Positions 1 to 63,630 of a stretch of DNA of 64,000 bases are shown here, one piece after another. Under the pieces are notes generated by a model that worked only from the letters and a program-made list of their open reading frames with translations, was not told where the DNA came from and did no database searches. A program made the position numbers and the translations under genes. Source of the DNA: an uncultured Candidatus Saccharibacteria bacterium (GTDB lineage: Bacteria > Patescibacteriota > Minisyncoccia > Phycocordibacterales > UBA12088); NCBI GenBank assembly GCA_964567265.1, contig CAZMLK010000001.1, positions 262,574 to 326,573 on the forward strand, read 5' to 3'. How positions within the stretch are numbered: position 1 is the stretch's first letter; the number at the start of each line of letters is the position of its first letter.

Positions 1-110
1 GTTTAAATAATAAAAAGAATAATAATCCTTGTGAGAAGCTATCCGCTGTAGAAGAGTGCAGCAAGCATCGGAAATAACGTACTGAATCGAATTGGCTTCT
101 AGGCTTCTCT

Positions 111-599
111 ATGGCAGAAACTAAAAAAAAAGTACAACTCAAGGTCGGAGACGTATTCGAAATACGTTTATCTGATGGCACCTATGCGTATGGTCAGTAC
201 TACGTACAGGATAAAGGGGGTGATGTCGGAAGGTTCTTTTCTTATAGAGGAAAAGAAAAAATTTCACCTGAAGAGGTCGTAAAATATCCATTGTTATTCC
301 CTCCGGTACATGTGGGGATACGTGCATCACTTAATGATGGAGTATGGGTGGTTGTAGGGAATGTACCAATAACAGATTTTGAAGAGCCCATGTTCCGAAG
401 TGAATTTTCTCTTACCCCGGGAAAGTTTGGAAAGTGGTATATCACACAGGGTGATAAGGTTGAAGAGGTGGGGTATGTGCTCCCAGAAAAATATAAAAAA
501 CTCGAACGCAAAGGCGTTTGGCCAGGTGACTGGGTAGATGAGCGTATTGAGAATGGAGGAAAAATACCAGAAAGATTGAAATGGATGGGCCAGTCCTGA
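111..599 (+). CDS. hypothetical protein, possible immunity protein of a displaced polymorphic-toxin cassette
   Basis: 162-aa ORF with ATG at 111 in an AT-rich block upstream of an orphan Rhs toxin tip. No recognisable catalytic motif. The function is inferred from context only. Confidence 0.45.
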   Translation: MAETKKKVQLKVGDVFEIRLSDGTYAYGQYYVQDKGGDVGRFFSYRGKEKISPEEVVKYPLLFPPVHVGIRASLNDGVWVVVGNVPITDFEEPMFRSEFSLTPGKFGKWYITQGDKVEEVGYVLPEKYKKLERKGVWPGDWVDERIENGGKIPERLKWMGQS

Positions 600-626
600 T
601 TGAAAGCAATAAAATAATAGTACAAT

Positions 627-896
627 ATGGAAATGGAATTTTTCTTGTATTTTTCTACAGAATCTAAAGCAGAGCAGGCGAAAAAAGAAATTCTAAAAGT
701 ATATCCGCAAGCTGTGATTGAAATTAGAAATGCTGCAGAAGGGGATCAGATTCTTTGTCTTACACGATTCACCGTCAATGGAGGTGCTCCAAGTGCGCTG
801 GATGAGATTGATGCGCGCCTTGAAAATATTTCACATCAATTTGGCGGTGACTATGACGGTTACGGTACTTCCCTAGAGGCAAATATTTCGGAATAA
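627..896 (+). CDS. hypothetical small protein, possible orphan immunity gene
   Basis: 89-aa ORF ending in TAA at 894-896, directly abutting the start of GC-rich Rhs-derived sequence at 897. Confidence 0.35.
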   Translation: MEMEFFLYFSTESKAEQAKKEILKVYPQAVIEIRNAAEGDQILCLTRFTVNGGAPSALDEIDARLENISHQFGGDYDGYGTSLEANISE

Positions 897-1026
897 ACCC
901 ACCTCCCAGACCAGTCTCTTCAAGGATGCCGTCACCTCCACCCTCGGCGCAGCGAGCTACGTCATCAGCACGACCACCGGCACGTATACCGACACCTACA
1001 CCGGCGGAGCCTTCCGCGACTGGTGC

Positions 1027-2028
1027 ATGGGCGCAGCCGCCTTCAAGCCGGCAAGCACCACTTCAAGTGCCACAACAACCACCCGCTATCTCCACACCGA
1101 CCACCTCGGCGGAACCCACTTCGTCTCTGATGCCACTGGTGCAGTCATCGAAGCCATCGACTACTACCCGTATGGACAGAATAGGGTTGATACCAAAGTA
1201 GGTACCTACACCGGAGAGAAGCGGAAGTACATTGGAGAAGAGTTTGACAGTGCGACGAATCTCTCGTACCTTAACGCGAGGTATTACAACGGGGCACGGG
1301 GGAACTTCCTGAGTGAGGATCCAGTATTCCTCGGCACTGAACAAAATCTTGAGGATCCTCAGGCTCTCAATTCCTATGCGTATGCGAATGGGAATCCGAT
1401 AACCAAAAGTGACCCTACTGGAAAGAGCTGGCAAACCTTTGGGCAAGGTGCCGCAAGTCCCTTTGTTTACGCTTATAATCATCCCTTACAGACAGCTGGA
1501 GTATTTGCATTGACCACTGTGGCAGTACTGGCAGCGCCTGTTACGGTCGCCGTGATAGGTGCTGCTGCTGGAGGTTATGCAATAGGAACAGCTGGCTTCA
1601 GTGCCTACACCGCTCCAAATGCAGATGCAAGAGATTACTATATTGGGCAGGCTCTCACATTCACTGGACTAACTGCTGTTGGAATCAAGGGGAGTTCCTC
1701 AGTAAGTGCTACAAAGTCAACATCACGGCAAACATCAGGCAGCCCAGATTTTATCGTAGATGTAAACGGACAAGTATTTCCTGTTCCCAAGGGGGCAACA
1801 GGACCAGTACCCGTTATAAATAAAGCTGGTAAGGTTACTGGCAGTGCATTTACTGGTGGTTCAGGCGGTGAAAATGGACAAGTCACTACGATGAGAATTA
1901 TGGATCCCAACTCAAGTAATCCGACTGGATATATAAAATACACAAATGCCAATAAACAAGGGGTGAATCCGAATACGGGAAAGACTGGCACACCTGCTGA
2001 GACGCATTACCCAGCAAACACTAAGTAA
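1027..2028 (+). CDS. orphan Rhs/YD-repeat C-terminal fragment with a variable toxin tip (no N-terminal Rhs body in the window)
   Basis: The translation carries the Rhs core C-terminal signature: TGTYTDTYTGGAF, RYLHTDHLGGTHFVSDATGAVIEAIDYYPYGQ, ARYYNGARGNFLSEDP and DPTGK. A hydrophobic stretch and an unrelated C-terminal domain follow. The frame is open from 877 and sequence homologous to Rhs cores starts at about 897. The first in-frame ATG is at 1027. Confidence 0.75.
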   Translation: MGAAAFKPASTTSSATTTTRYLHTDHLGGTHFVSDATGAVIEAIDYYPYGQNRVDTKVGTYTGEKRKYIGEEFDSATNLSYLNARYYNGARGNFLSEDPVFLGTEQNLEDPQALNSYAYANGNPITKSDPTGKSWQTFGQGAASPFVYAYNHPLQTAGVFALTTVAVLAAPVTVAVIGAAAGGYAIGTAGFSAYTAPNADARDYYIGQALTFTGLTAVGIKGSSSVSATKSTSRQTSGSPDFIVDVNGQVFPVPKGATGPVPVINKAGKVTGSAFTGGSGGENGQVTTMRIMDPNSSNPTGYIKYTNANKQGVNPNTGKTGTPAETHYPANTK

Positions 2029-2033
2029 CACTC

Positions 2034-2378
2034 ATGAATACCTTTGAACATGTCCTTAAGGGGAAAAAAGTAGAAGTTATCAACGATAAGCCAGAAAAAT
2101 ACGAAGACGGAACTGTCGGCAATGATTGGGGTCTGGGTTTCGAGGGAGATTGGGGCTTGGCAATCTATGCCAACAGGGTAATAAAAAATGCCGAGTCGCT
2201 GAAAGATTTCGTTGGTGAAAAACTTACTTCAATCCAAGAAACAGAGAATGCAGTTGTTTTCGACTTCACTCATGAAAAAAAAATAATAATTTCTTTGGAA
2301 GAAAAAGATTGGAACGGCCCGGAGATAATGATGCTACAACGAGATAATCAGATATATGTATGGGGTGTCGGTGAATAG
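2034..2378 (+). CDS. putative cognate immunity protein for the Rhs C-terminal toxin
   Basis: 114-aa acidic ORF starting 6 nt after the toxin stop, which is the typical toxin-immunity arrangement. It is AT-rich like the toxin tip. Confidence 0.55.
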   Translation: MNTFEHVLKGKKVEVINDKPEKYEDGTVGNDWGLGFEGDWGLAIYANRVIKNAESLKDFVGEKLTSIQETENAVVFDFTHEKKIIISLEEKDWNGPEIMMLQRDNQIYVWGVGE

Positions 2379-2447
2379 CCGGTAGCTGTAGTCAGAGATA
2401 CCTCCAATACTCTTTAAAAGGCAGGGCTCAATATTCTCCATATAATT

Positions 2448-2639
2448 ATGAAAAAGATACCAATAACGCTTCTGCCGATCGTTCTAATTTTGATCGTTCT
2501 CCTCCTGTTCACTTTCTACGTGCCGCAGAGCGGGGATTTGATTTCTAGTAAAGGTGACTATTACTTGGGGCAAGCGCTCGGCCTCCTAACAGTGCTTTCA
2601 CTCCTCTTGGATTTTATGAGGTTCCAGAATCGCAAGTAG
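2448..2639 (+). CDS. small membrane protein with two predicted TM helices
   Basis: 63-aa ORF with two hydrophobic segments, located in the AT-rich cassette region. Confidence 0.35.
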   Translation: MKKIPITLLPIVLILIVLLLFTFYVPQSGDLISSKGDYYLGQALGLLTVLSLLLDFMRFQNRK

Positions 2640-2683
2640 AAACCAGCTGTAGTCTGTCGCCGGGGACACATCCATTTGAAACT

Positions 2684-2908
2684 ATGAAAGAAGAAATACT
2701 AATGCCGCTTGATGAAGAGGGAATCACCGTCTATCGACCCGTTTTGGCATTAAGGATTAATGATCACATTTATAAAATTCTTGAAGATACCTTAAATAAC
2801 CAAAATGATGAAGTTTGGGCCTTTAAGCCAGGTGAAGTCGTAGAGGTTGTTGAAAAAGAATTCGAGAATAAAAAATCATTGGTTGCCGTAAATTTGTACA
2901 AAGAATAA
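2684..2908 (+). CDS. hypothetical small protein
   Basis: 74-aa ORF in the cassette region with the same orientation as its neighbours. Confidence 0.35.
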   Translation: MKEEILMPLDEEGITVYRPVLALRINDHIYKILEDTLNNQNDEVWAFKPGEVVEVVEKEFENKKSLVAVNLYKE

Positions 2909-2953
2909 TGTATTTAACGCAAAGTCAGTCGTAATTAAACTGAATTCAATTCT

Positions 2954-3214
2954 ATGAACGACGGAAATAAACTTACACCGGATGAAGCATATAAGGCTAT
3001 GTTTTTCTTTCTAGATCGATGGTGGAAAGAAGGAGGACAGAAAGAAGATAACATTGCAAATATACTCAGTAGTATGTCTCTTTTAGCAGATGGTTCTTCT
3101 GCGGACGGCGCTATGATGCAAGACTGGAAAAATAGTGTCAAAAAGGTTCTCGAGTATCGAGGAAGGGTGGAAACGGGGGAAGAACCATGGATGTTGAATT
3201 TGACTAATAATTAG
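2954..3214 (+). CDS. hypothetical small protein, possible orphan immunity gene
   Basis: 86-aa ORF. GGGGACACRTCCA-like junction motifs flank this gene and the previous one. Confidence 0.4.
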   Translation: MNDGNKLTPDEAYKAMFFFLDRWWKEGGQKEDNIANILSSMSLLADGSSADGAMMQDWKNSVKKVLEYRGRVETGEEPWMLNLTNN

Positions 3215-3382
3215 GTCTTAGAATGGTATTGTCTTGTGGCGGCGTAGGGGAGTAGCGGGGGGACACGTCCAATATTCCTCCAAAATCTGTGGAGTACTAT
3301 TCTCCATCTGTCCGGTAGGGGTGGGACCAACACCACTACTTGCTTTTTTCTGGGCTTGCTGCATAATGTCGCTCATTAAATT

Positions 3383-4258
3383 ATGACCGATTTAAAGCAG
3401 CAAATCCACGAGAATACCCTCCGTGCCTACATATGGATGGCCGCATTAACCACCATCATAGGCGTGCTTGGCACGCTGATTTCCTATTCATTTGATTGGG
3501 GACTCACTGGTACTGGCTCGTTTCTCCTTGTAGCCGGTTTCATCAATTTTCTTGCCTATTTCTTTTCAGATAAGCTCGTCCTTCGTGCAACGGGAGCAAA
3601 GCCTGTTTCTCTGGAACAGGCTCCTGAGCTCTACGAGATTGTCGAGCGGTTGTCACAAAAGGCCGGCATTCCTGTACCTAAAATATATCTCATTGACGAG
3701 CGTGCATTGAATGCGTTTGCCACAGGCAGAGACCAGAAGCATAGCGCGGTGGCAGTCTCAAGAGGTCTTCTTGAGCACATGACTGCAGATGAAGTTGAAG
3801 GAGTCGTCGCCCACGAGCTTTCACACATTCGGAATTACGATATGCGATTTGCAGCCATTGTTTCCGTACTTGTTGGCTTTGCGAGCATCGTAGCTGATCT
3901 GTACTGGTCATCTCGCATGGTCAGTGCAGCCCAGGAAAAAGATCGATCCGGCATACTGGCGATCATCGGACTTGTTCTTGCCGTGGCAACACCACTTACG
4001 GCCATGTTTATCCAGTTGGCAATATCGCGAAAGCGCGAATTCATTGCCGATGCTGCAGGAGCGACATTGACTGAGAATCCTAAAGCGTTGGCCTCGGCAT
4101 TAAAGAAGATTGCGCTTGATGTACGTCTCCCGTCGGGGATCAGTCCTGCTACTGCACATATTTATTTTTCCACCCCGAATAAAGACTCATTCATCGAGCG
4201 GCTGTTCGCAACCCATCCTCCAATCGAAGAACGAATCAATATCCTTGAGTCCAAATAA
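3383..4258 (+). CDS. htpX: HtpX-like M48 zinc metalloprotease
   Basis: Two N-terminal TM helices, a HELSH zinc motif (HEXXH) and a C-terminal ATHPPIEERI region typical of HtpX. A CATAAT-like -10 lies upstream near 3364. Confidence 0.9.
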   Translation: MTDLKQQIHENTLRAYIWMAALTTIIGVLGTLISYSFDWGLTGTGSFLLVAGFINFLAYFFSDKLVLRATGAKPVSLEQAPELYEIVERLSQKAGIPVPKIYLIDERALNAFATGRDQKHSAVAVSRGLLEHMTADEVEGVVAHELSHIRNYDMRFAAIVSVLVGFASIVADLYWSSRMVSAAQEKDRSGILAIIGLVLAVATPLTAMFIQLAISRKREFIADAAGATLTENPKALASALKKIALDVRLPSGISPATAHIYFSTPNKDSFIERLFATHPPIEERINILESK

Positions 4259-4284
4259 TCTAGATTAAAAAATTCAATACGAGC

Positions 4285-4905
4285 ATGTCAGATTCAACTA
4301 CAGCAGAAGCGCCAATAAAGATCGGAAATCACACGCAGGATATCGTGAGGTGTGCTAATTGCAACATGGAAGGAGTTGTCGGCGATTTCTTCACCTATCA
4401 GACGAAGGACGGCTCAGATACCTACCTCTGTTCAGACTGCCGCGTCAAAGCAAATGAGACGCTTGAGGCAGAGAAGAATCAAATCAATATGGTGTATGCG
4501 GCCGGGCTCGGTATCGTTGCAGCGATCGCGGGTGGAATCGCGTGGTACTATGTCACCCTGCTCACGAACATGGAATTCGGATATGCAGCGCTCGGACTCG
4601 GATATCTGGTCGGATATGCAGTATTTATCGGTGCTGGGAAGCGACGCGGACAAAAGTTGCAGATCCTGAGTGTGGTATTGACTTTGCTTAGTATTTTCTG
4701 GGCAGAATACTTCATTTTCAGTCACGGACTCTTCGAATACATGAGCGCGAATCCCTCTCAATTTGATTGGTGGGATGGTGCTAAAATTTGGCTAGATCCG
4801 TGGTCTTCTATCTTCCTCGAAACATTTATCTCTCCAATCAGCGCACTTATTTACGCAATCGGCCTCTACGTAGCGTACACTGTGTGCAAGCCTCAAAAAC
4901 TCTAA
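4285..4905 (+). CDS. zinc-ribbon membrane protein (N-terminal CxxC...CxxC followed by about four TM helices)
   Basis: CANCN...CSDC motif followed by hydrophobic helices. Followed by a strong terminator. Confidence 0.6.
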   Translation: MSDSTTAEAPIKIGNHTQDIVRCANCNMEGVVGDFFTYQTKDGSDTYLCSDCRVKANETLEAEKNQINMVYAAGLGIVAAIAGGIAWYYVTLLTNMEFGYAALGLGYLVGYAVFIGAGKRRGQKLQILSVVLTLLSIFWAEYFIFSHGLFEYMSANPSQFDWWDGAKIWLDPWSSIFLETFISPISALIYAIGLYVAYTVCKPQKL

Positions 4906-4914
4906 AATAGACCC

Positions 4915-4943
4915 AAAAAAACCTCCTATAGGAGGTTTTTTTG
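4915..4943 (+). terminator. rho-independent terminator (ACCTCCTATAGGAGGT stem plus T-run)
   Basis: Perfect palindrome flanked by an A-run and a T-run, so it can act in both directions. Confidence 0.7.
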
Positions 4944-5053
4944 TTGGGGTGTGGTGGAAATGGCGCGTACAGAATCCAAAGTAATCCACAGTTCGGGAAT
5001 ATGTTACACTGTACTTTCTACAGTCATTTATACGCATCACGGAAGCCAACAGC

Positions 5054-5572
5054 ATGAACGATCTCTATACATACACGGTCCCCATCTTCACCAAGATGCT
5101 CGGCGGGCTCGACAACGTGCTTACCAAGGCCGAGGCCTACGCGAATGCCGAAGGCATCGACAGCGAAGTCCTCTTCGACGCGAAGCTCGCGCCGGACATG
5201 TATCCGTTCATCCGGCAGGTCCAGATCGCATGCGACAACGCGAAGGGCGCGACCGCCCGGCTTGGCGGCGTCGAGAATCCGAAGTACGAGGACAATGAGC
5301 GGACCTTCAATGATCTCCATGCGCGCATCGCGAAGACGCTCGAGTTCATCAAGTCGGTACCCGAGTCAGCATTCAAGGATGCGGCGACCCGCGAGGTCAC
5401 GCTTCCGTACTTCCCGGGCAAGTACTTCACTGGCTTCGATTATGCCCGCGAATACGCGCTCCCGAACTTCTTCTTCCATACCACCATCGCGTACGGCATT
5501 CTCAGGAGCAAAGGCGTGCCGCTTGGCAAGCCGGATTATATGAACGGACTCTCGCTTAAGAATATCGGCTAA
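5054..5572 (+). CDS. DUF1993 family protein (DinB/YfiT-like fold)
   Basis: 172 aa. LAPDMYPFIRQVQIACD and the length and sequence pattern match DUF1993. Confidence 0.7.
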   Translation: MNDLYTYTVPIFTKMLGGLDNVLTKAEAYANAEGIDSEVLFDAKLAPDMYPFIRQVQIACDNAKGATARLGGVENPKYEDNERTFNDLHARIAKTLEFIKSVPESAFKDAATREVTLPYFPGKYFTGFDYAREYALPNFFFHTTIAYGILRSKGVPLGKPDYMNGLSLKNIG

Positions 5573-5581
5573 CATTCCCGT

Positions 5582-6502
5582 ATGGCGCTTGCCCTCAAGA
5601 TCGAAAATCTCGAAAAGACCTATGCGAGCGGTACCGTCGCGCTCCGCGGCGTGTCCTTGGATGTTCCTGAAGGAGACTTCTATGCGCTCCTGGGGCCGAA
5701 TGGCGCAGGAAAGACCACCATCATCGGTGTCGTCACCGGACTCGTCACGAAGACGGGTGGAACGGTCTCGGTCTTCGGCGCGGATATCGAGAAGGAGCCG
5801 GAGCTCGCGCGCACCTACATCGGCGTCGTGCCGCAGGAGCTCAACTTCAACATCTTCGAGAAGGTGATCGACGTCGTCATCAACCAGGGCGGCTACTATG
5901 GCATCCCGCGGAAGGTCGCGGCTGCGCGCGCAGAGAAGATCCTCGAAGGGCTCGGACTCTATGACAAGCGCTTCGCGGTCTCGAATACGCTCTCGGGCGG
6001 CATGAAGCGACGGCTCCTCATCGCACGGGCGCTCATCCATGAGCCGAAGTTCCTCGTCCTCGATGAGCCGACGGCGGGCGTCGATGTGGAGCTCCGCCGC
6101 GGCATGTGGGAGTACCTGAAGACGCTGACCGCGAAGGGAACGACCATTCTCCTCACCACGCACTATCTTGAGGAAGCGGAGCAGCTCGCGAAGCGCGTCG
6201 CTATCATCAACAAGGGCGAGATCATCGCTGACGGCACCATGAAGGACGTGCTCGCGAACCTGCACACGGAGACCCTGGTCCTCGAGCTCACGAAGCCGAT
6301 CAACGATGAGATGCTGGGAAGCCTCAAGGAATTCAACGCGAAGCGGGCAGACGACGATACGATCGAGATCGAGATCGACCGCGCTCAGAACGTGAGCGAC
6401 GCGGTCCGCGCGCTCGATCGCTTCGGCATCCCGGTCCGCACCGTGCACGGCAAGTCGGGCCGTCTCGAAGAAGTATTCCTCCGCCTCACCAGCAACAAAT
6501 AA
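5582..6502 (+). CDS. ABC transporter ATP-binding protein (ABC-2 / DrrA-like exporter ATPase)
   Basis: Walker A GPNGAGKTT, signature LSGGMKRRL, Walker B LVLDEPTAGVD. Confidence 0.9.
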   Translation: MALALKIENLEKTYASGTVALRGVSLDVPEGDFYALLGPNGAGKTTIIGVVTGLVTKTGGTVSVFGADIEKEPELARTYIGVVPQELNFNIFEKVIDVVINQGGYYGIPRKVAAARAEKILEGLGLYDKRFAVSNTLSGGMKRRLLIARALIHEPKFLVLDEPTAGVDVELRRGMWEYLKTLTAKGTTILLTTHYLEEAEQLAKRVAIINKGEIIADGTMKDVLANLHTETLVLELTKPINDEMLGSLKEFNAKRADDDTIEIEIDRAQNVSDAVRALDRFGIPVRTVHGKSGRLEEVFLRLTSNK

Positions 6503-6503
6503 T

Positions 6504-7280
6504 ATGGACGCTACACGACTCTGGATTTCTTTCTATACCATCATCCGCAAGGACGCGGTGCGCATCTTCCGCATCTGGCCGCAGACCTTCCTGCCGTCGG
6601 CGATCACCTCGGCGCTCTACTTCCTAATCTTCGGATCGTTCCTGGGGTCGAAGATCGGCGACGTCCACGGCGTGCCGTACATCAATTTCGTGATCCCGGG
6701 CCTCGTGATGCTCGCGGTCGTCACCAACGCGTACTCGAACGTCGCAACCATCGTCTTCCAGGCGAAATTCTTCTCGCGGAACATCGACGAGATCCTCGTC
6801 TCGCCGACCCCGCCGTGGGTCATCATCGCGGGATTCATGACGACGGGCGTCGTGCGCGGTATCGGGGTCGGCGTCGTGGTCCTTCTGGTCTCGATGCTGT
6901 TCGCGCATATCACGATCGCGCATTGGAGCATCGTCCTCCTCTTCCTCATCCTCACGAGCGTCGTCTTCTCGCTCGCGGGCCTCGTGAACGGCATCTATGC
7001 GAAGGGCTTCGACGCGATCACCATCGTGCCGACCTTCGTCCTCACGCCGATGGTGTACTTGGGCGGCGTCTTCTACTCGATCGCGACACTGAGCGGCTTC
7101 TGGCAGGCGATCTCTTTGGCGAATCCGATCTTCTACATCATCAACGGCTTCCGCTATGGCTTCCTCGGCTTCTCCGATATTCCGCTCATGACCAGCGTGT
7201 ACGTCCTCTTTGGCATCGGTGCGGTCCTGGTCGCCATCAACTGGTATCTCATCCGGACGGGTCTTGGTTTGAAGCAGTAA
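6504..7280 (+). CDS. ABC-2 family transporter permease
   Basis: 258 aa with six TM helices. Its start overlaps the ATPase stop. Confidence 0.85.
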   Translation: MDATRLWISFYTIIRKDAVRIFRIWPQTFLPSAITSALYFLIFGSFLGSKIGDVHGVPYINFVIPGLVMLAVVTNAYSNVATIVFQAKFFSRNIDEILVSPTPPWVIIAGFMTTGVVRGIGVGVVVLLVSMLFAHITIAHWSIVLLFLILTSVVFSLAGLVNGIYAKGFDAITIVPTFVLTPMVYLGGVFYSIATLSGFWQAISLANPIFYIINGFRYGFLGFSDIPLMTSVYVLFGIGAVLVAINWYLIRTGLGLKQ

Positions 7281-7285
7281 GATCT

Positions 7286-7795
7286 ATGCGGAAAAAAATC
7301 GTCCGGGTTTCTGATACGATGCAGACAGCCTATTCGTACGAACTCACTGAGCCCGCGGGACAGAACTTCGACAAGCGCTTCCGGCCGGAGCTCACTCCGA
7401 AGGAAATGCTCGCGCTCGGTGTCTTCGGTGGCGTGTATATGCGTGACTGCGTGAAGGAATTTCCGAAGGACTGGTTCAAAGATGCAAAGTTCGCCGAAGG
7501 CGCGCGCGATGTCTCACTCAACTATTTCAAAGTGGACGCGAGCCAGCCCCTTTCCGTCTGGAAAGCAAAGGGGTGGATCTATGCGGACGATCCGCGCGGC
7601 TGGTTCCAGTGGTATTGCCGATACTACATGGGCCGAAGGATTCCAGAAGAAGACGAGCGGCAGATCAAGCGCTGGCGGGCGATGGTGCGCCACATCGCGC
7701 AGATCCGGAATGCGTGCCGCCCTGGAGAAATGCACTGCCACCGCAAGCAGCGGCAGGCGCTCCTCCACTGGGCATATGACAGCAGAAAGGTATAA
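7286..7795 (+). CDS. DUF4385-like protein (conserved GWFQWY motif)
   Basis: ATG at 7286 with the frame continuing to 7795. GWFQWYCRYYMGRR is reminiscent of DUF4385. The long upstream extension 6815.. overlaps the permease and was rejected. Confidence 0.55.
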   Translation: MRKKIVRVSDTMQTAYSYELTEPAGQNFDKRFRPELTPKEMLALGVFGGVYMRDCVKEFPKDWFKDAKFAEGARDVSLNYFKVDASQPLSVWKAKGWIYADDPRGWFQWYCRYYMGRRIPEEDERQIKRWRAMVRHIAQIRNACRPGEMHCHRKQRQALLHWAYDSRKV

Positions 7796-7862
7796 TGCTG
7801 ATACTTTTCCGATCTCATCGGAAATATTTCCCCAGAGTGCGTTGTAGTAACTAAAACCTCGT

Positions 7863-8303
7863 ATGCAGATACATGAACTCGGGCACGTCGTGCTTTATGT
7901 TGCCGACCTCAACATCTCAGCTGATTTTTATAAAAATACACTCGGTTTCAACGAGATCACAAGGAAGCCGGGCATGGCGCTGTTTTCTGCCGGTCGGACA
8001 CACCATGAGATGCTCCTTCTCGAGGTCGGCGGCATCCCGCGCGCCAAGGATTTCCCTGAGCCAGGCCTCTATCACATCGGCTTCAAGATCGGCGACGGGC
8101 CGGAGGCGGCGCGGGTAGCATACCGCGAGCTCAAGGAGGCGGGAGTGCCGATCGTCGGCGCATCCGATCATGGGGTGACCCACAGCATCTACATCATGGA
8201 CCCCGATGGCAACGAGCTCGAGCTCTATGCCGATGTCTCGGATGCCTGGAAGACCGACCCCTTGGCAGTCATGGCTCCTGTGCGGCCCCTCAATCTCGAC
8301 TGA
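7863..8303 (+). CDS. VOC family protein (glyoxalase/bleomycin-resistance/dioxygenase fold)
   Basis: LGHVVLYVADL...FY...LGF N-terminal signature and HIGF...DPDGNELEL C-terminal signature. Confidence 0.8.
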   Translation: MQIHELGHVVLYVADLNISADFYKNTLGFNEITRKPGMALFSAGRTHHEMLLLEVGGIPRAKDFPEPGLYHIGFKIGDGPEAARVAYRELKEAGVPIVGASDHGVTHSIYIMDPDGNELELYADVSDAWKTDPLAVMAPVRPLNLD

Positions 8304-8304
8304 T

Positions 8305-8877
8305 ATGGATGATCTCCGGAAGCGCGTGGGCTTCTTCAAGACGGCGGTCGGCGACCCTGGCGTCGCCGCGATCGCCACGAGCTCGCGATTCGTGATCCGG
8401 AACGTGCTCCGCAGGATGCCTGAGGGCGCGAAGACGATCATCGAATACGGGCCGGGCGAGGGCGTCCTCACGAGGCCGCTCCTTTCGAGGCTTCCCGCCG
8501 ACGGCGTCCTTATTGCCATCGAGTCGAACCACGACTTCGCCGAAAGCCTCCGCAGGATCAATGATCCGCGGCTCCGCGTGCTCGAAGGGAAGGTGGAGGA
8601 CGTCCTCCATGACAAAGCACTCCTCGGCATCGAGTCTGCCGATTTCGTCGCCTCCTCGATCCCGTTCTCGTTCCTGTCTTCCGAGGAGCGTGCCGGGATT
8701 GCCGCAGAGACCGCGCGCATACTCGTGCCCGGGGGCAGGTTCGTCGTCTTCCATCAATACTCGCCGCTGATGCAGCCGGTCCTGAAGCACGGATTCGGGA
8801 AAGTGGATGTCGATTTCGAGTTCCGGAATGTCTTTCCATGCTTCATCATCGAAGGGGTGAAGTATAGAGGAAGGTAG
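8305..8877 (+). CDS. class I SAM-dependent methyltransferase
   Basis: IEYGPGEGVLT motif I. ATG at 8305 follows the VOC stop. Confidence 0.7.
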   Translation: MDDLRKRVGFFKTAVGDPGVAAIATSSRFVIRNVLRRMPEGAKTIIEYGPGEGVLTRPLLSRLPADGVLIAIESNHDFAESLRRINDPRLRVLEGKVEDVLHDKALLGIESADFVASSIPFSFLSSEERAGIAAETARILVPGGRFVVFHQYSPLMQPVLKHGFGKVDVDFEFRNVFPCFIIEGVKYRGR

Positions 8878-8882
8878 GAGAA

Positions 8883-8915
8883 CCCCCGCGCCGCCAAAGG
8901 CGGCGCGGGGGTTTC
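8883..8915 (+). terminator. rho-independent terminator
   Basis: CCCCCGCGCCGCC aaa GGCGGCGCGGGGG followed by TTTCG. Confidence 0.6.
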
Positions 8916-9083
8916 GTGTAAGAATCATGAACGTCGTACGTCACGGCAACTGTAGCTAGAAGAAAGGCAATCTAGGCATGAGCTGGCCCGTCCAGCGTGG
9001 TCAAGACCGCTTTTCTTCCGAAGATGCCCGCCATCCCGGCGAGCATTTTCGAATCTGTTCTTTCACAACTTGGAGATGCGAGA

Positions 9084-10261
9084 TGACTATCCCGACAGAG
9101 CTGCTTGGCAGCAATGCTGGCAGTCCCTTACGGATTGCCATGGTGAGCCAGTTATTCGAGCTCACGCCCCCGAAGAAGTATGGGGGCACCGAGCTCTTTG
9201 TAGCCACGCTCACGCGCACCCTCGTCAATATGGGCCACCATGTCACGCTCTACACCGCCGGCGGCTCGCTGCCGATCGGTTCGACGACGATCTACGCGAC
9301 ACCCGAGCCTCTCTGGATGGAAGGCAAGCCGCTCATCTCGGATTCTGATGCGGCTGAAATCCATGCGGATATGTACCGCACGGTCATCCGTGATGACCGC
9401 TATCGCAAGTATGATGTCATCATTCTCAATGGAGAATGGCATTTCATCGATACGGACCTCGCACGGGATCTGCAATGTGTGAAGCACAAATGCCTCACCG
9501 TCATGCATGGCCCGACGGAGACGTCGGATCGAAGCGACGCGTGGAAAATTGGCGCGTGCGGATGGAATCTCGTTTCCATATCGGATGCGCAGCGCATCGG
9601 CCTCGATGAGTTCGCGGCCAGGTCGAAGAAGGATCTCTCGCCCACCTGGATGGGAACCGTGTATCACGGACTGAATCCTAAGGATTTCCCGGAACCCGTC
9701 TTCGAATCCACCGGCGGACTTGTCTTCCTCGGTCGCATGCACGAGACCAAGGGTGCGCATACGGCAGTCGCGATCGCGAAGAAGGCCGGCATCCCGCTCC
9801 ACATCGCGGCGCGGATCCACGAAGGTCCCGAGGGCGACCACTACCGCGCGCATGTCGAACCCCACGTCGATGGCGTGAGTGTCATCTGCGTCGGGGAGGC
9901 AGACTTCGTGCAGAAGACTGCGCTTCTCCGCAACGCGGACGCGCTCTTGTTCCCGATCGAATGGCCTGAGCCGTTCGGCCTGGTCATGATCGAAGCGATG
10001 GCCTGCGGCTGTCCCGTCATCGGCTATGGGCACGGTTCCGTTCCCGAAGTCGTCGATGAAGGCGTCACCGGATTCGTGGTCAGTTCCATCGAAGAAGCCG
10101 TTGCGGCGATTCCGCGCGCACGTCTCCTCGATCGGAACAACATCCGCCGGCAGTTCAGGGTCCGTTTCTCTGCCACGCAGATGGCTACCCAGTACGTGCG
10201 CATCTTCCGCACGCTTCTCCAAGGAAAAAAAGACGCACCCGCCGCCCGTCTAGCGGCATAA
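9084..10261 (+). CDS. glycosyltransferase family 4 (GT1/GT4 fold)
   Basis: C-terminal EPFGLVMIEAMACGCPVIGY is a GT4 signature. GGAG lies 8 nt upstream of ATG 9084. The ORF is open further upstream to 8978. Confidence 0.85.
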
Positions 10262-10291
10262 CCTCTCCCAGTCGGAGAGGGTATCGAAAAT

Positions 10292-10330
10292 GACGCCCGC
10301 ATGCGAAGCATGCGGGCGTCTTTCTTTTTT
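10292..10330 (+). terminator. rho-independent terminator
   Basis: GACGCCCGCATGC gaa GCATGCGGGCGTC followed by TTTCTTTTTT. Confidence 0.7.
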
Positions 10331-10453
10331 CAATACTCGTGTCCTAATGTGTCATTGTGTAGGGGACAGCCCGCTCTGGCTTCTCCCGTGCCAGAAGTGC
10401 TAGAATAGTCGGACTCCCTGCATTACAATCGTTAATCAATCGAAGACACCACA

Positions 10454-11098
10454 ATGGATACGATGGATACCAAGCCTGAGATTTCGGGTAAGAAGAGCTG
10501 GAAGATGATGTTGAAGGACAAGAAGGTGATGGGCGGGCTTGTGATCGCAGTCGTCATCATCCTGATCGCGCTCCTGTATGTCTTCAAGGCATGCTTCGTT
10601 GCTGCGACCGTGAACGGTTCTCCGATCAGCCGCTGGAGCATCATGAAGGCCGCAGAGAAGCAGGTCGGCGCGCAGATTCTCGAGTCGAAGATCACCGAGA
10701 AGCTCATCAAGACCGAGCTTGCGAAGCAGAAGATTACTGTCGACCAATCTGAAATCGATGCTGAAGTGAAGAAGGTCGAGGACCAGATCACCGCACAGGG
10801 CGGCACGCTCGATCAGGCGCTCGCGCAGCAGGGCATGACCAAGGATCAGTTCATCGACCAGATCAAGGTCCAGAAGGAAGTCGAGAAGCTCCTCATGGAC
10901 AAGGTCGCCGTCTCTGACGAAGACATCACCAAGTACATCGCTGACAACAAGCTCACCGCGCCGGCAGGCATGAGCGCGGACGATATGCGAAAGCAGATCC
11001 GCGACATCATCAAGCAGCAGAAGTTCAGCGCGGCAGCGCAGGAGTGGGTCGCGGGACTCCGCACCAATTCGAAGGTGAATACGTACGTGAAGTTCTAA
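10454..11098 (+). CDS. membrane-anchored SurA N-terminal-domain-like chaperone protein
   Basis: N-terminal TM helix followed by a Lys/Glu-rich coiled domain resembling the SurA_N/PrsA N-terminal region. No PPIase motif is seen. Confidence 0.5.
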   Translation: MDTMDTKPEISGKKSWKMMLKDKKVMGGLVIAVVIILIALLYVFKACFVAATVNGSPISRWSIMKAAEKQVGAQILESKITEKLIKTELAKQKITVDQSEIDAEVKKVEDQITAQGGTLDQALAQQGMTKDQFIDQIKVQKEVEKLLMDKVAVSDEDITKYIADNKLTAPAGMSADDMRKQIRDIIKQQKFSAAAQEWVAGLRTNSKVNTYVKF

Positions 11099-11123
11099 TC
11101 GCAATTTCCGGATAGTCGAGAAA

Positions 11124-11155
11124 CCCCGCGCCTTCGGCGCGGGGTTTCGTTTTCA
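11124..11155 (+). terminator. rho-independent terminator
   Basis: CCCCGCGCC ttcg GGCGCGGGG followed by TTTCGTTTTC. Confidence 0.6.
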
Positions 11156-11254
11156 AGACCAAGCCTCCTGGCCGAAACTTGACAAATAAAATAATTACTC
11201 TATTGTTTTTTGGAAATCCATGTTCCCATTGCAACGTGAAAGGAACCAATCGGC

Positions 11255-13481: not shown

Positions 13482-15125
13482 ATGACCCAGGATGAAGCAT
13501 TCAGTGTACTCAAGACCGGAGCGAATGCCTTCGTCACGGGCGAGCCTGGATCGGGAAAGACGCATACGATTAACCGCTACATCCGGTATCTCCGCTCGCA
13601 CTCGATCGAGCCCTCAGTCACCGCCTCGACCGGAATCGCCGCGACGCATGTGGGCGGCATGACCATCCATTCCTGGAGTGGTATCAATATCCGGAAGACG
13701 CTCTCGCGCTACGAGCTTGATGCATTGTCCGAAAAGGAATACCTCGTGAAGCGCCTCACAGCGGCGAAGGTGCTCGTGATCGACGAGATCTCGATGTTGG
13801 ATGCGGATACGCTCGATACGGTCGAGCAGGTGTGCCGGACGCTCCGCCGAAAGGCAGAGCCGTTCGGCGGCCTCCAGATCATCTTCGTCGGAGACTTCTT
13901 CCAGCTTCCGCCGGTCGCCCGCATGGGCGAGCCGAAGCCGCGCTTTGCCTTTGAGTCGCGTGCATGGGAAGCCGCGCGGCCGTTCGTCTGCTATCTGACC
14001 GAGCAGCACCGACAAGAAGACGATGTCTTCCTGTCGGTGCTGGCTGAGCTCCGCCGTGGCGAGCCGAGCGACTACTCGCGCGAGCATCTCGCGACGCGCC
14101 GGGTGATGCCCGGAAGTCCCGTTCTTGAAATCCAAACGAAACTCTATACCCACAACGCGGATGTCGATCGGATCAATACCGAGAAGCTCGGACGGCTTGA
14201 GGGGGGCATGCGCACCTTCACGATGGAGCGGCATGGCTCGGGGACCATCGTCGAGAAGCTTGCTCAGACCTGCTTGTCGCCTGAGATCCTGAATTTGAAA
14301 GAGGGGGCGATCGTGATGTGCACCAAGAACAATCCCGAAATGGGATTCGTCAACGGCACGCTCGGCACCGTGATGCGTTTTGAAAAGGAAAGTGGCCGGC
14401 CGGTCATAAAGACGCATGACAAGCGCGAGCTCACGCTCGCGCCAATGGAGTGGACCATCGAGGATAACGGCAAGGTGATCGCGAAGGTGGTCCAGATCCC
14501 GCTTCGCCTCGCCTGGGCAATGACCGTCCACAAGAGCCAGGGCATGTCCCTCGACGCCGCTGTCATCGATCTCTCGAATGCATTTGAATATGGCCAGGGA
14601 TACGTCGCACTCTCGCGCATCCGCACGCTCGACGGCCTCCATCTCCTCGGCATCAATGAGCGCGCGCTCGAAGTGCATCCGCAGATTCTAGAAAAGGATG
14701 CTGACATGCGGAGCTCATCCAAAGATGTTGGCAACGCCTTCGGCAGTATGAGCGCCGTTGAAAAGAAAACGATGGAAGAGAATTTCATCCGTGCGCAGGG
14801 CGGCACGCTTGAGGAAGTGAAAGTCGAGAAGCAGACCGGCGTAACCCGAATCCGAAGCGCCAAGAAGAAGACGCCTGAGGAGCAGGCGAAAAGCGATTCC
14901 TACCAGGCGAAGCTCGCGAAGCTTCGTGAGAAATTCCCGAATGCATTCATGCCCTGGAAGAAGGAAGATGACGAGAAGCTCATCGCGAACTTCGACGGGG
15001 AAGAGTCGGTCCCGAAACTCATCAAGCTCATGGGCCGCCAGCGGGGCTCCATCCGCGCCCGCCTCGTGAAGCATGGCCTCATAGAAGACGACACCGTAGG
15101 AGCAGTCGAAGCGGAGATTTTCTAG
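13482..15125 (+). CDS. PIF1/RecD-family ATP-dependent DNA helicase with a roughly 110-aa C-terminal extension
   Basis: Walker A GEPGSGKTH. VLVIDEISML and PFGGLQIIFVGDFFQLPPV motifs. HKSQGMSLD lies in the C-terminal helicase domain. SD GGAGGA upstream. Confidence 0.8.
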   Translation: MTQDEAFSVLKTGANAFVTGEPGSGKTHTINRYIRYLRSHSIEPSVTASTGIAATHVGGMTIHSWSGINIRKTLSRYELDALSEKEYLVKRLTAAKVLVIDEISMLDADTLDTVEQVCRTLRRKAEPFGGLQIIFVGDFFQLPPVARMGEPKPRFAFESRAWEAARPFVCYLTEQHRQEDDVFLSVLAELRRGEPSDYSREHLATRRVMPGSPVLEIQTKLYTHNADVDRINTEKLGRLEGGMRTFTMERHGSGTIVEKLAQTCLSPEILNLKEGAIVMCTKNNPEMGFVNGTLGTVMRFEKESGRPVIKTHDKRELTLAPMEWTIEDNGKVIAKVVQIPLRLAWAMTVHKSQGMSLDAAVIDLSNAFEYGQGYVALSRIRTLDGLHLLGINERALEVHPQILEKDADMRSSSKDVGNAFGSMSAVEKKTMEENFIRAQGGTLEEVKVEKQTGVTRIRSAKKKTPEEQAKSDSYQAKLAKLREKFPNAFMPWKKEDDEKLIANFDGEESVPKLIKLMGRQRGSIRARLVKHGLIEDDTVGAVEAEIF

Positions 15126-61788: not shown

Positions 61789-61914
61789 AGCCTACGATCA
61801 ATGCTCGAGCAGAGTAATGTTGTCCGCGTTCTTCCTTGCCACGCGCATGATTTCGTGTTTTATTTCCGCTAGACCAATGGCGCATTCCGCGCCATATGAG
61901 TGGAGTTGCTTGTC

Positions 61915-63630
61915 ATGATGTCCGAAAACGCCCGCTATCTCTACGAAGTGCTGTTTGCTGGATTTGATTTCCGTCCACCACATCCGAATAGGTCGCTTCC
62001 GGAAGTGGTTCGGGATGCAACCGAAGCGGTTGAGAAGCATCTGAAGAATTCTCCACTGCTCCGTGCCTATCTAGAAACCGTTCCAAAAGGGCCGGGTACC
62101 GATTGTCCCGATTCACCGCTTGATGAGCTTGTCTACTATGTAGCCACTCAGAAAGGCTGGGTCGACAAGAAGGATCCGTATCTGAATCTCAGATTCCTCG
62201 CACGCTTCGTGCTTCCGGTCTTCGAGATGGAACGCCATGTGGTCGAGCGTGCTATTCACGGTCTTCGAGCGATCACTGAACAGCAGGAACTACTCTTTCT
62301 AGACTGCATTCTGCACGCGCGAGCCGTCGATCGGCTTTGGCAGCGCTGGTTCGAGAAGGTGGCTGCACCGTTCCAATCGCTCGACAAGGAGGGGCAAGAA
62401 CGGCAGAAAAAGAAGCTGGGGAATATCCTTCCACCATATGACTATACGGCTTTTGAGATTGATCCTTTTGGAGATATCCAGAATCGCCGTCCATGGGCAA
62501 AGGCATTCCCGAAGGAGATTGCGGCAATTGACGCGTCACTCCGCGAGCTTGAAGAAACGGAAGATCAGTATCTTGCCGAATACTTCCGAGCCCTTCGCCT
62601 GGCATACACCTGCGACCGCATCGAAAATCTGGAAGAACGCTGGGCAGAGGTAGACCGCGCGTGGGTACTGATTCCATCTGACAGCGAGATCATCCCTGTC
62701 CATGGCATGGAAAGCGCGTACGGTCATGCGTTCTGCGTCAGTCCGGAGTTCAGGCTCGAGTTCCGAACTCCGGATTCCATACGTGAGATCGAGCTCCAAC
62801 GAAAAGCTGCCGTAGAGCATGCAGACAAGATTCTCGGGCTCAGCAACGCGCTCATACTTGAGGCATCAAAAAAACTGCGGCGAATCGATGTCAGCGTCTT
62901 CACCCCCGGTATTCGTGCCGGCAGTTGCATCGATTTCCGGTATGCGGGCCAGGCGGTTCCAAATCGCCAGGCAGTGCTTCTGATCGGCGGCAAGATATTC
63001 GTCGATCAGAGCGATCCGGCGCGTGTTGCAGAGCGATATCAGACCTTGATTCTGCGTCACTGCGCTCCTCATACTGCCGCTCAAATCGCACCGCTCCTCA
63101 CGCGCGAAATGCAGATCATGGGTACGATCACTCATGAGTTCGCACATCCGATCGGAAGGACAAGCGCAAGCGACGAGATGCTTGGGCATACCGTCGTCTT
63201 CCAGCTCGAGGAAGGGAAGGCGACACTCGGCGGCATTTGCGCTGAGGAGTATGCCGATCCGTCTCCGGAACATCGCCTCCAGCTTGTCGCCAATGCTGTC
63301 GGTCGGATGCTCAGGTTCATGCAGCATTCTGAAATTACGAATCCGACCATTGCTCCCTATGTCCGGGAGAATCTCGTGACGGCGACGACGCTCTATGATG
63401 CGGGAATCTTGTCACTCTCCAAGCAGGGTTTGGAGATTGATATCGGGATGGCCAGCAGTCCGTATTGGTTCCAGAATCTCCGCGTTTTCTACGGAGATTT
63501 GGTCGCTGCATATGAGTCAAAGGATGCAGCGGCAATTGCATCCATGACCACTCTGTATGCCAATCCGGATGATCCGCAAATAGTCGAACTTATCGAGTGG
63601 GTAAACCGCGAGCTTCCGGCCGCAGCATAA
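61915..63630 (+). CDS. large hypothetical protein with an HEXXH motif (ITHEFAHPIG), unknown family
   Basis: 571 aa from ATG 61915; the ORF-track start at 61900 is a GTG. No recognisable family; possibly a zinc peptidase-like protein. Confidence 0.6.
   Translation: MMSENARYLYEVLFAGFDFRPPHPNRSLPEVVRDATEAVEKHLKNSPLLRAYLETVPKGPGTDCPDSPLDELVYYVATQKGWVDKKDPYLNLRFLARFVLPVFEMERHVVERAIHGLRAITEQQELLFLDCILHARAVDRLWQRWFEKVAAPFQSLDKEGQERQKKKLGNILPPYDYTAFEIDPFGDIQNRRPWAKAFPKEIAAIDASLRELEETEDQYLAEYFRALRLAYTCDRIENLEERWAEVDRAWVLIPSDSEIIPVHGMESAYGHAFCVSPEFRLEFRTPDSIREIELQRKAAVEHADKILGLSNALILEASKKLRRIDVSVFTPGIRAGSCIDFRYAGQAVPNRQAVLLIGGKIFVDQSDPARVAERYQTLILRHCAPHTAAQIAPLLTREMQIMGTITHEFAHPIGRTSASDEMLGHTVVFQLEEGKATLGGICAEEYADPSPEHRLQLVANAVGRMLRFMQHSEITNPTIAPYVRENLVTATTLYDAGILSLSKQGLEIDIGMASSPYWFQNLRVFYGDLVAAYESKDAAAIASMTTLYANPDDPQIVELIEWVNRELPAAA

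Follow-up and report, generated by a model that had tools for sequence, protein, structure and literature searches.

Orphan rhs-CT/rhsI modules, as described in Enterobacteriaceae (Poole et al. 2011, PMC3150448; Koskiniemi et al. 2014, PMC3967940), consist of a truncated Rhs core without a start, a DPxG motif, a variable tip, and an adjoining immunity gene, and they follow a further rhs end in the same orientation, with a GC-rich core and AT-rich tips. Two other solved systems bear on the locus described here: the Tc-toxin BC-type/Rhs cocoons TcdB2-TccC3 and YenC2 (PDB 6h6e, 4igl), and the nuclease PT7 with its immunity protein PIM7 (PDB 8owu). The hallmark of the PT7-PIM7 pair is a Mg2+-dependent nuclease activity that is blocked by the immunity protein. 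PT7 degrades DNA, and rRNA in vitro (bioRxiv 10.1101/2021.10.19.465003; 10.64898/2026.07.31.742022), and mutations of D37, H47, and H73 each fully abolished its toxicity (Nachmias et al., bioRxiv 10.1101/2021.10.19.465003).

Here, we describe a locus at the beginning of a 64-kb stretch of DNA (the window, to which all coordinates refer) that shares all the above features of the enterobacterial orphan modules, although its host is not an enterobacterium. We consider it likely that the region from about 897 to 2378 represents an orphan cassette of an Rhs C-terminal toxin with its immunity gene, located in a same-strand array behind another Rhs C-terminus. Its core is similar in length to the homology between main and orphan cores in Salmonella LT2 (529 bp here versus 522 bp; PMC3967940), whereas the identity between the core ends of the two copies is lower (70% versus 95%). 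No T6SS, PAAR, or VgrG context was visible within the window.

Layout and composition of the array

The array consists of the following features:

1-10, + strand: end of a 138-aa ORF (last codons and stop) that starts upstream of the window (771-1187 of metagenome contig L001)
111-599, + strand: Imm26-family immunity gene (PF15428) without an adjoining toxin (orphan immunity)
627-896, + strand: RraB-family small acidic protein of 89 aa (PF06877), whose stop abuts the core fragment
897-1425, + strand: 5'-truncated, GC-rich Rhs core fragment (TIGR03696), ending in SDPTGK (1408-1425)
1426-1743, + strand: hydrophobic, Gly/Ala-rich pre-toxin linker (GRAVY +0.36), without a Pfam family
1744-2028, + strand: basic, mostly beta toxin domain of 92 aa, with a predicted distant PT7-like nuclease fold
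2034-2378, + strand: predicted cognate immunity gene (product of 114 aa, pI 4.7; predicted fold PIM7-like)
2448-2639, + strand: hydrophobic small ORF (membrane ORF) of 63 aa, GRAVY +0.90, GC3 0.60
2684-2908, + strand: acidic small ORF of 74 aa, pI 4.6, GC3 0.32, called on contig L013
2954-3214, + strand: acidic small ORF of 86 aa, pI 4.7, called on contigs L013 and L014

All the ORFs that a sequence-only reading of this DNA had listed are found on the + strand at the same coordinates in the ORF list, and the Rhs core with a variable tip that it had proposed is borne out as a core at 897-1425, a tip at 1426-2028, and an acidic ORF at 2034-2378. The tip and this ORF are indeed adjacent, but the gap between them measures 5 nt (2029-2033) and not the 6 nt given there. 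The claimed contrast between an AT-rich block and a GC-richer backbone was confirmed by both GC and GC3: GC amounts to 0.40-0.44 over 1-900, 0.55 over 800-1400, and 0.37-0.45 over 1600-3200, as compared to 0.55-0.64 in the backbone beyond ~5000. Likewise, GC3 is 0.65 in the core and 0.29-0.39 in the tips and small ORFs (with 2448-2639 as the exception), versus 0.75-0.83 in the backbone genes. The AT-rich block ends with the ORF at 2954-3214, after which the backbone starts with HtpX at 3383. A terminator-like hairpin lies 3' of this last ORF (3320-3337), although the number of such sites did not exceed the chance expectation.

The same reading had recognised no family for the small proteins, which does not apply to two of them. 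The ORF at 111-599 (GC3 0.36) matched PF15428 Imm26 with E 7.5e-11 and 42.7 bits against a cut-off of 23.3, and the ORF at 627-896 (pI 4.4, GC3 0.29) matched PF06877 RraB with E 2.3e-10 and 41.4 bits, again against a cut-off of 23.3. Because the latter stayed below the cut-off of the NCBIfam RraB equivalog (13.6 bits versus 82), we refer to it as RraB-like and not as an RraB orthologue; judged by its context, it is probably a further orphan immunity gene. For the other small ORFs, the claim stands. The ORF at 2448-2639 yielded no significant family in Pfam or NCBIfam and is absent from the gene calls on the Logan contigs, and those at 2684-2908 and 2954-3214, likewise without a Pfam or NCBIfam family, are candidate orphan immunity genes.

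The truncated Rhs core and its upstream copy

The core fragment is, as judged from profile and motif matches, a true Rhs core end. The Rhs profile comparison suggested by the sequence-only reading turned out positive, as the NCBIfam model of the RHS repeat-associated core (TIGR03696) matched at 1162-1423 with E 1.8e-17 and 63.6 bits, well above its cut-off of 32.5. In phmmer searches, the fragment aligned with TccC3, YenC2, and further Rhs cocoons of solved structure, at their C-terminal end. The alignment extends over the C-terminal plug of TccC3 and YenC2, including both catalytic Asp motifs of the autoprotease (LSEDP and SDPTGK, with LSSDP and LLDPDG as the counterparts in TccC3); unlike these cocoons, however, the fragment comprises no more than the final 176 residues. 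The Pfam models of the RHS and YD repeats (PF05593, PF25023) found no match in 880-2025 at E<=1, which leaves the terminal core domain only, as one would expect after truncation. Its initial 60 residues, without YD repeats, matched a single other protein (P0023).

The reading frame to which 1027-2028 belongs stays open as far 5' as 880, and the stop of the preceding ORF (894-896) lies in a different frame. Over its 1149 nt (880-2028), this frame contains neither stops nor frameshifts, and there is no in-frame ATG, GTG, or TTG between 880 and 1026. A direct reading of the residues that follow M1027 did not reveal an apparent signal peptide for export.

A second Rhs core end became visible on the Logan metagenome contig L001, of which 1178-2105 is identical to 1-928 of the window and which reaches 1177 nt further upstream. 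This additional part contains a core end, a different tip of the Tox-REase-7 family (PF15649, E 5.3e-13), and a small ORF, i.e., the acidic 138-aa ORF (pI 5.4, without a Pfam family) that ends at 10 in the window and is, solely by its position directly 3' of the tip, the presumed cognate immunity gene. The second core copy sits 1.3 kb upstream of the window core on the same strand. Comparing the two core ends, we found 82% protein identity over the last 74 residues, followed by complete divergence; at the nucleotide level, identity to the upstream copy is 70-74% up to 1425 (70% over 1233-1425) and falls to a random level of 31% thereafter, right behind the DPxG motif. The main rhs gene that the sequence-only reading had placed upstream is thus supported insofar as another rhs copy does exist there, visible no further 5' than its last 74 core residues, and this copy may itself be an orphan.

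The breakpoints of the metagenome contigs provide a further view of the shared core. In two Logan samples, contigs break exactly at the 30-mers 899-928 and 1203-1232, each of which is common to two paths in the k=31 assembly graph. L001 stops at 928, after 30 nt of the core, and shares exactly 30 nt (1203-1232) with L013/L014 before diverging from them. From this, we infer that the 274 nt between the two junction 30-mers are common to both copies as well, and the core fragment is presumed to be a substrate for recombination with the upstream rhs copy.

Similar arrangements occur in other genomes. The nearest core relatives were found in metagenome genomes of the Patescibacteria and Saccharibacteria type, including a Saccharibacteria MAG in which a 1993-aa SpvB + TcdB_mid + RHS protein with a related core is followed by a small ORF. 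Contig L004, from another organism, contains five cassettes whose cores show nested 5' truncations, and the Leptospira noguchii plasmid NZ_CP092115.1 carries RHS-core genes in a row with a small ORF after each. A search with the core as the query returned only proteins of <=308 aa, at a best identity of 58%; it is an unreliable negative because the window's own 333-aa protein was missed too.

These features suggest how the cassette may work. In place, it would be silent. Homologous recombination over the common core (up to ~334 bp, 899-1232) could fuse it to the upstream rhs gene, whereby the DNA between the copies would be deleted unless the event took place on a duplicated copy; comparable recombination has been demonstrated for Salmonella LT2 (PMC3967940). 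Within the Rhs shell, the fused tip would subsequently be cut between SDPTGK and SW and then be delivered to a neighboring cell, where the small basic domain would act as a nuclease, while in sibling cells the acidic immunity protein would block its active site. The immunity genes that stand without a toxin (Imm26, RraB-like, and perhaps those within 2684-3214) would guard against the toxins of neighbors.

The linker, the toxin domain, and its partner

The tip consists of two parts. Because the linker (1426-1743) recurs at 71% identity in protein P0002, where it is fused to another, HNH-like tip, it is a separable module, possibly with a role in membrane insertion or translocation. The 92-aa toxin domain behind it has no Pfam or NCBIfam family. 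We found about 20 relatives of this domain with a homologous ORF 3' of each, the ORF homology being significant in L010, L011, and L015. This co-occurrence of toxin domain and downstream ORF across unrelated lineages points to 2034-2378 as the putative cognate immunity gene of the toxin at 1744-2028. The pI values are 9.4 (basic) for the domain and 4.7 (acidic) for the ORF. Conserved residues of the domain include R59 (1894-1896), D62 (1903-1905), and H96 (2005-2007; numbering on window 1720-2025). At the D62 position, 16 of the 21 family members have Asp and the remaining 5 have Asn, while H96 is nearly invariant.

Related toxins are encoded on Leptospira plasmids, and on the L. noguchii plasmid mentioned above the genes are likewise part of a row of RHS-core cassettes. 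The protein WP_225741441.1 on NZ_CP043878.1 carries the same toxin domain (~61% identity), followed 3' by a 107-aa ORF homologous to the immunity gene of the window (E 7e-9), but has another linker ahead of the domain. These proteins are annotated as 'polymorphic toxin type 10 domain-containing'. Their Ntox10 (PF15520) match, however, is confined to model positions 1-85 and lies in the linker, upstream of the toxin domain, and Ntox10 did not match the window tip even with its linker included.

The predicted folds of toxin and immunity protein each matched, independently, the same entry, PDB 8owu, i.e., PT7 with PIM7. At the level of profiles, neither the toxin profile, nor the single toxin sequence, nor the immunity profile yielded similarity to the 8owu chains at E<=10. 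Short motifs nevertheless correspond, as compared with PT7 fragments that were decoded from mutagenesis primers and not with a full alignment: TIRMRI-D37-PP, LYDEN, and DA-H73-IP in PT7 pair with TTMRIM-D62-P, KY(E/T)N, and ET-H96-YP in the window family. The elements MRI-D-P, Y-x-E-N, and H-x-P are thus common to both, with a D-to-H spacing of 36 in PT7 and 34 in the window family. By these primer-decoded fragments, D37 of PT7 would correspond to D62 and H73 to H96, and H47 has no counterpart. D62 and H96 are candidate catalytic residues. As in PT7(Bc)-PIM7(Bc), a small basic domain at the C-terminus makes up the toxin, and its partner is an acidic immunity protein of ~115 aa. The systems differ in size (78 aa in PT7 versus 92 aa here) and in what they are fused to, namely LXG (T7SS) domains in Firmicutes for PT7 versus an Rhs core plus hydrophobic linker here.

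Taken together, the structure predictions suggest a toxin that is distantly related to the recently described PT7 nuclease and has so far gone unannotated. Its chemistry may differ from that of PT7 because H47 is missing and the D37 equivalent is Asn in 5 of the 21 members. The idea of a new toxin and immunity pair therefore holds in part: it is supported by the lack of a Pfam or NCBIfam model, and weakened by the fold match of both partners to the solved PT7-PIM7 complex and by the common D37 and H73 motifs. A more far-reaching proposal, which we put forward tentatively and with considerable doubt, is that the toxin and its partner of 100-120 aa constitute a sequence family of their own, as yet undescribed, in a superfamily of PT7-like nucleases. 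Its active site would be altered (H47 lost, a set of R/Y/N/Q/H residues conserved), and its carriers would include Leptospira plasmids as well as, in uncultured lineages, Rhs cores, hydrophobic linkers, and signal-peptide proteins. In this host, with core relatives of the Patescibacteria and Saccharibacteria type, Rhs or Tc-type cocoon toxins with arrays of exchangeable cassettes would then serve ultra-small bacteria as a weapon.

Competing readings and significance

Expression in place could do without recombination: the 333-aa ORF from ATG 1027 to 2028 would be transcribed from an internal promoter and act, with 2034-2378, as a TA-like pair or as a stand-alone toxin. Salmonella orphan Rhs elements have been described as type II TA-like modules (PMC7043789), 1027-2028 does have an ATG and is called as a 333-aa protein by the NCBI annotation, and relatives of the core and toxin are often short (100-335 aa), some of them with a signal peptide (P0012, P0013, P0015, P0016, P0022). 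We nevertheless regard this scenario as unlikely. The conserved GC-rich core coding continues, open and start-less, for 130 nt 5' of the ATG, which itself falls within a motif common to P0023 (W.M....FKPA), and the resulting product would have neither a signal peptide nor a delivery domain. Moreover, a promoter scan found no more sites than in shuffled sequence and none on the + strand upstream of 1027, and a free orphan product was undetected in Salmonella LT2 (PMC3967940). The missing ribosome-binding site is uninformative here, since Shine-Dalgarno sequences are absent in this organism even ahead of HtpX. It is similarly improbable, in our estimate markedly so, that the cassette is a decaying relic, i.e., a displaced former tip kept only for the protection that its immunity gene affords against neighbors with this toxin, its own toxin part never being reused. 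Toxin loss does happen in the array, since the Imm26 and RraB-like genes stand without toxins, and over its final 193 nt the core is down to 70% identity with the upstream copy, so that the usable homology is shorter. Yet the 1149-nt frame is undamaged, all invariant and near-invariant residues of the toxin family are retained in the window copy, and the two core copies still have exact 30-mers in common.

A separate question concerns the activity of the toxin. If its likeness to PT7 went no further than the fold, it might not be a nuclease and might have another activity, such as that of an RNase that needs no metal or of a toxin acting on membranes. We think this possible, if rather doubtful, given that toxin and immunity protein each lead to the one PT7-PIM7 entry, that two of the three residues whose mutation abolishes PT7 toxicity (D37, H73) lie in common motifs at matching spacing, and that a basic toxin is paired with an acidic immunity protein as in PT7-PIM7.

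The layout of the array is a well-studied way to store and swap toxin tips, and hence establishes no new principle. It does document Rhs cassette arrays in poorly known Patescibacteria-related lineages, in which the delivery routes are not understood. It also shows that part of the Pfam Ntox10 model captures a linker and not a toxin. Overall, a toxin-immunity family that is blank in current profile libraries, and that also occurs on plasmids of pathogenic Leptospira, gains a name (PT7-like) and a testable activity.

Coding content and composition of the array

All seven plus-strand ORFs that the sequence-only reading had placed within positions 1-3300 of the window were found at the same coordinates by our ORF listing:

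111-599, + strand, small ORF (Imm26)
627-896, + strand, small ORF (RraB family)
1027-2028, + strand, end of an Rhs core with its tip
2034-2378, + strand, immunity ORF
2448-2639, + strand, small ORF
2684-2908, + strand, small ORF
2954-3214, + strand, small ORF

The same reading had recognised no family for the small proteins. This did not stand for the first two ORFs, which scored above the Pfam gathering score as Imm26 (111-599, E 7.5e-11) and as a member of the RraB family (627-896, E 2.3e-10), but it did stand for the three ORFs in 2448-3214, for which Pfam and NCBIfam searches returned no family. One of the three codes for a hydrophobic peptide of 63 aa, and the products of the other two are acidic (pI 4.6-4.7). 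Because ORFs 111-599 and 627-896 have no neighbouring toxin, we read them as orphan immunity genes, a role that for the RraB-like ORF we infer.

The frame of 1027-2028 is open already from position 880, just ahead of the TAA (894-896) of ORF 627-896, which is read in another frame, and this open stretch contains no in-frame ATG, GTG or TTG ahead of 1027. GC content is ~0.40-0.44 over 1-900, 0.55 over 800-1400 and 0.37-0.45 from there to 3200, and it attains 0.55-0.64 only past about 5000. The mosaic is clearer in third-position GC (GC3) than in plain GC: GC3 is 0.65 in the core fragment, 0.29-0.39 in both parts of the tip and in the small ORFs (the 63-aa membrane ORF, at 0.60, being the exception), and 0.75-0.83 in backbone genes such as those for the RNR alpha subunit, UvrA and UvrB. 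The first two genes past the array, HtpX (3383-4258, GC3 0.48) and a gene for a 206-aa zinc-ribbon-like membrane protein (4285-4905), are intermediate in GC (0.45-0.51) and backbone composition returns only near 5000, so the low-GC island may reach past the cassette array. Within 1-3500, promoter and terminator scans gave nothing above chance and a repeat scan found no flanking repeats; the 64-kb window holds a single tRNA. Two other ORFs, a RecD2/TraA-like helicase (13482-15125) and a CiaB-like protein (61900-63630; family NF033805 of invasion proteins, E 5e-22, a score that does not reach the family cut-off), have no apparent relation to the Rhs finding.

The Rhs core fragment and its upstream copy

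The translation of 880-2025 matched TIGR03696 (RHS repeat-associated core, NCBIfam) above the cut-off, at 1162-1423 (E 1.8e-17), and a Pfam search of this translation returned no YD-repeat model. When compared with PDB sequences by phmmer, residues 61-176 of the fragment aligned with the C-terminal ends of several T6SS Rhs cocoons as well as of TccC3 and YenC2, with both autoprotease Asp motifs in the alignment (LSEDP and SDPTGK in the window, LSSDP and LLDPDG in TccC3). What is present amounts to no more than the final 176 residues of a core, and we therefore regard it as a fragment rather than a gene; the 64-kb window contains no further core copy. The first 60 residues (898-1080, TSQTSLFKDAVTSTLGAASYVISTTTGTYTDTYTGGAFRDWCMGAAAFKPA) lack YD repeats and are conserved only with the database protein P0023 (58% identity), with no match in the Saccharibacteria cores or in those of the metagenome contig L004. 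In this lineage, a different domain may directly precede the Rhs core.

An upstream rhs copy with the same core end had been predicted, and a 2105-nt Logan metagenome contig (L001), recovered by exact-protein look-up with ORF 111-599, carries one. Positions 1178-2105 of this contig are identical to window 1-928, while its first 763 nt code for another Rhs core end, TYTGEKRKYIGEEFDASTNLSYLNARYYNGARGNFLSEDPVF...NGNPVNLKDPSGE, followed by a different tip, Tox-REase-7 (Pfam, E 5.3e-13), and then by a 138-aa ORF with its stop codon at window 8-10. Over 1233-1425, protein identity between the two core ends is 82% and nucleotide identity 70%; past the DPxG motif the identity is only 31%, i.e., random.

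With the Imm26 protein and the immunity protein as queries, only short Logan contigs were recovered, broken at the repeat. L001 covers the first 30 nt of the GC-rich fragment and stops at window 928. Two contigs from two runs that carry the immunity ORF (L013 and L014) both start exactly at window 1203; their first 30 nt, and no more, coincide with the start of L001. A two-copy repeat is expected to leave such break points at its borders in a 31-mer assembly graph, which places each of the 30-mers 899-928 and 1203-1232 in two contexts. Most simply, the repeat spans 899-1232 (334 bp), of which we infer the interior.

The toxin domain and its immunity partner

Behind SDPTGK lies a hydrophobic Gly/Ala-rich linker (1426-1743). 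The tip is modular: the database protein P0002 has a linker 71% identical to it, followed by an unrelated, HNH-like domain. The last 92 residues (1744-2025) are common to 20 proteins at 52-71% identity, where the toxin domain follows an Rhs core, a Gly-zipper-like linker or a signal peptide, and ten Leptospira plasmids also carry it (~61% identity). Searched against Pfam and NCBIfam, the domain itself gave no match. The Leptospira homologues are annotated as 'polymorphic toxin type 10', and the Ntox10 model (193 positions) matches them only over positions 1-85, that is, over the linker and not the shared domain, as seen on the plasmids NZ_CP043878.1 (L015 3704-4309) and NZ_CP092115.1 (L016 2927-6192). 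The first half of Ntox10 seems to describe a common pre-toxin linker rather than a toxin, and annotations of this type can therefore mislead. An identical partial Ntox10 match occurs in proteins with differing C-terminal domains. We also considered the published, Leptospira-specific PT8 family for these homologues and rejected it, as its primer-decoded motifs (AHY-D70-GYGRLKART-D80-YNA, PDT-H94-YSKYKYENG, C-terminus TPGEYK) are unlike this domain, with a likeness limited to a KYEN-like stretch.

The ORF right after the toxin homologue is a homologue of window 2034-2378 on the contigs L010, L011 and L015 (E 7e-9, 5e-11 and 7e-9), and on L008 the downstream ORF aligns with it weakly. A word-based search found one immunity homologue; it took an exhaustive HMMER search to recover 16 cluster representatives among 1.84 billion proteins. 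None of the 18 members scanned, the window copy included, reached any Pfam gathering score.

The AlphaFold models are confident (toxin, pLDDT 88; immunity protein, pLDDT 92.8), and both match the same PDB entry, 8owu, the PT7 nuclease with its PIM7 immunity protein, and chance is an unlikely cause of both predicted partners reaching one entry independently. PT7 is a 78-aa Mg2+-dependent nuclease of new fold that degrades DNA, and its toxicity is fully lost in D37A and H73A (bioRxiv 10.1101/2021.10.19.465003); a later preprint reports that it degrades rRNA too (10.64898/2026.07.31.742022). Parts of the PT7 sequence, rather than a full one, were decoded from mutagenesis primers in the supplement, and we compared ...TIRMRI-D37-PPDKVTKYD-H47-VHLYDEN...KSPDA-H73-IPYKM with ...TTMRIM-D62-P...GYIKY(E/T)N...ET-H96-YP of the window family. 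Three motifs are colinear, with a D-to-H spacing of 36 in PT7 and 34 in the window, whereas H47 has no counterpart in the window family, and in 5 of 21 relatives Asn replaces the Asp equivalent to D37. Neither partner shows a sequence-level link to solved structures, and profile searches made no connection to PT7-PIM7. Because of the common fold entry and colinear motifs, yet also the lost H47, the Asn variants and the missing profile link, we call the window domain a predicted, distant PT7-like toxin and consider a nuclease activity probable; a non-nuclease activity is less well supported.

Related arrays and the orphan-cassette reading

A search for related loci among genome and metagenome contigs gave relatives with 52% and 75% core identity. 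The latter, L004, has a core 75% identical to the upstream copy and carries five tandem core-plus-tip cassettes, in which the cores begin at different 5' points (nested truncations of the same core) and small ORFs follow each. Along 1300-11200 of this contig (Ga0209515_10001184; genome ~38% GC), two multi-pass membrane proteins as well as small ORFs lie between the cassettes. On a Leptospira noguchii plasmid, RHS-core genes and small ORFs take turns in a comparable row. How a main gene of this type can look is illustrated by a Saccharibacteria MAG (L002), in which a full-length protein of 1993 aa combines SpvB, FG-GAP, TcdB_mid and RHS repeats with a related core (49-52% identity); a small ORF comes after it. 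On L011 (1-4966; GCA_011392945.1, WUUC01149009.1), the ORF of a 3041-aa protein, which matches PQQ/beta-propeller and PKD and faintly RHS_repeat, overlaps at its end by 4 nt with a separate 321-aa ORF (P0013). The latter joins a signal-peptide-like N-terminus to an Rhs core and the PT7-like toxin; this looks like a split Rhs with core plus toxin as its own gene.

A protein search with the window core gave 82 database matches (P0023-P0104), many of metagenome origin and named 'RHS repeat-associated protein', and each was 308 aa or shorter, a ceiling that is uninformative on full-length Rhs proteins and no evidence of their absence. Two explanations offer themselves, a large excess of orphan fragments over full-length genes in these lineages or a separate class of short core-plus-toxin proteins; the restriction to short matches may also be a search artefact, because the window's own protein was not returned.

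The cassette would be silent where it stands; recombination over the common core would fuse it to the upstream rhs gene, the fused protein would cleave itself at the DPxG motif and its tip would then be delivered, while the acidic immunity protein would shield siblings. In Salmonella LT2, such recombination was demonstrated by experiment, via 522 bp of 95% identity (PMC3967940). Expression in place from ATG 1027, without recombination, is less well supported, although Salmonella orphans are reported to act as TA-like modules (PMC7043789). On L004, some cassettes may be expressed in place, since two of them begin with the same MQT(K/I)VK... start. That the cassette is a decaying relic is likewise the less well supported reading. 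The orphan-cassette interpretation proposed from the sequence proved essentially right and the finding real, and the arrangement is a further example of a well-known one. The pair had been called possibly new, which holds as to its lack of annotation and not as to its kinship: this toxin-immunity family, blank in the profile libraries, can be tied to PT7-PIM7.
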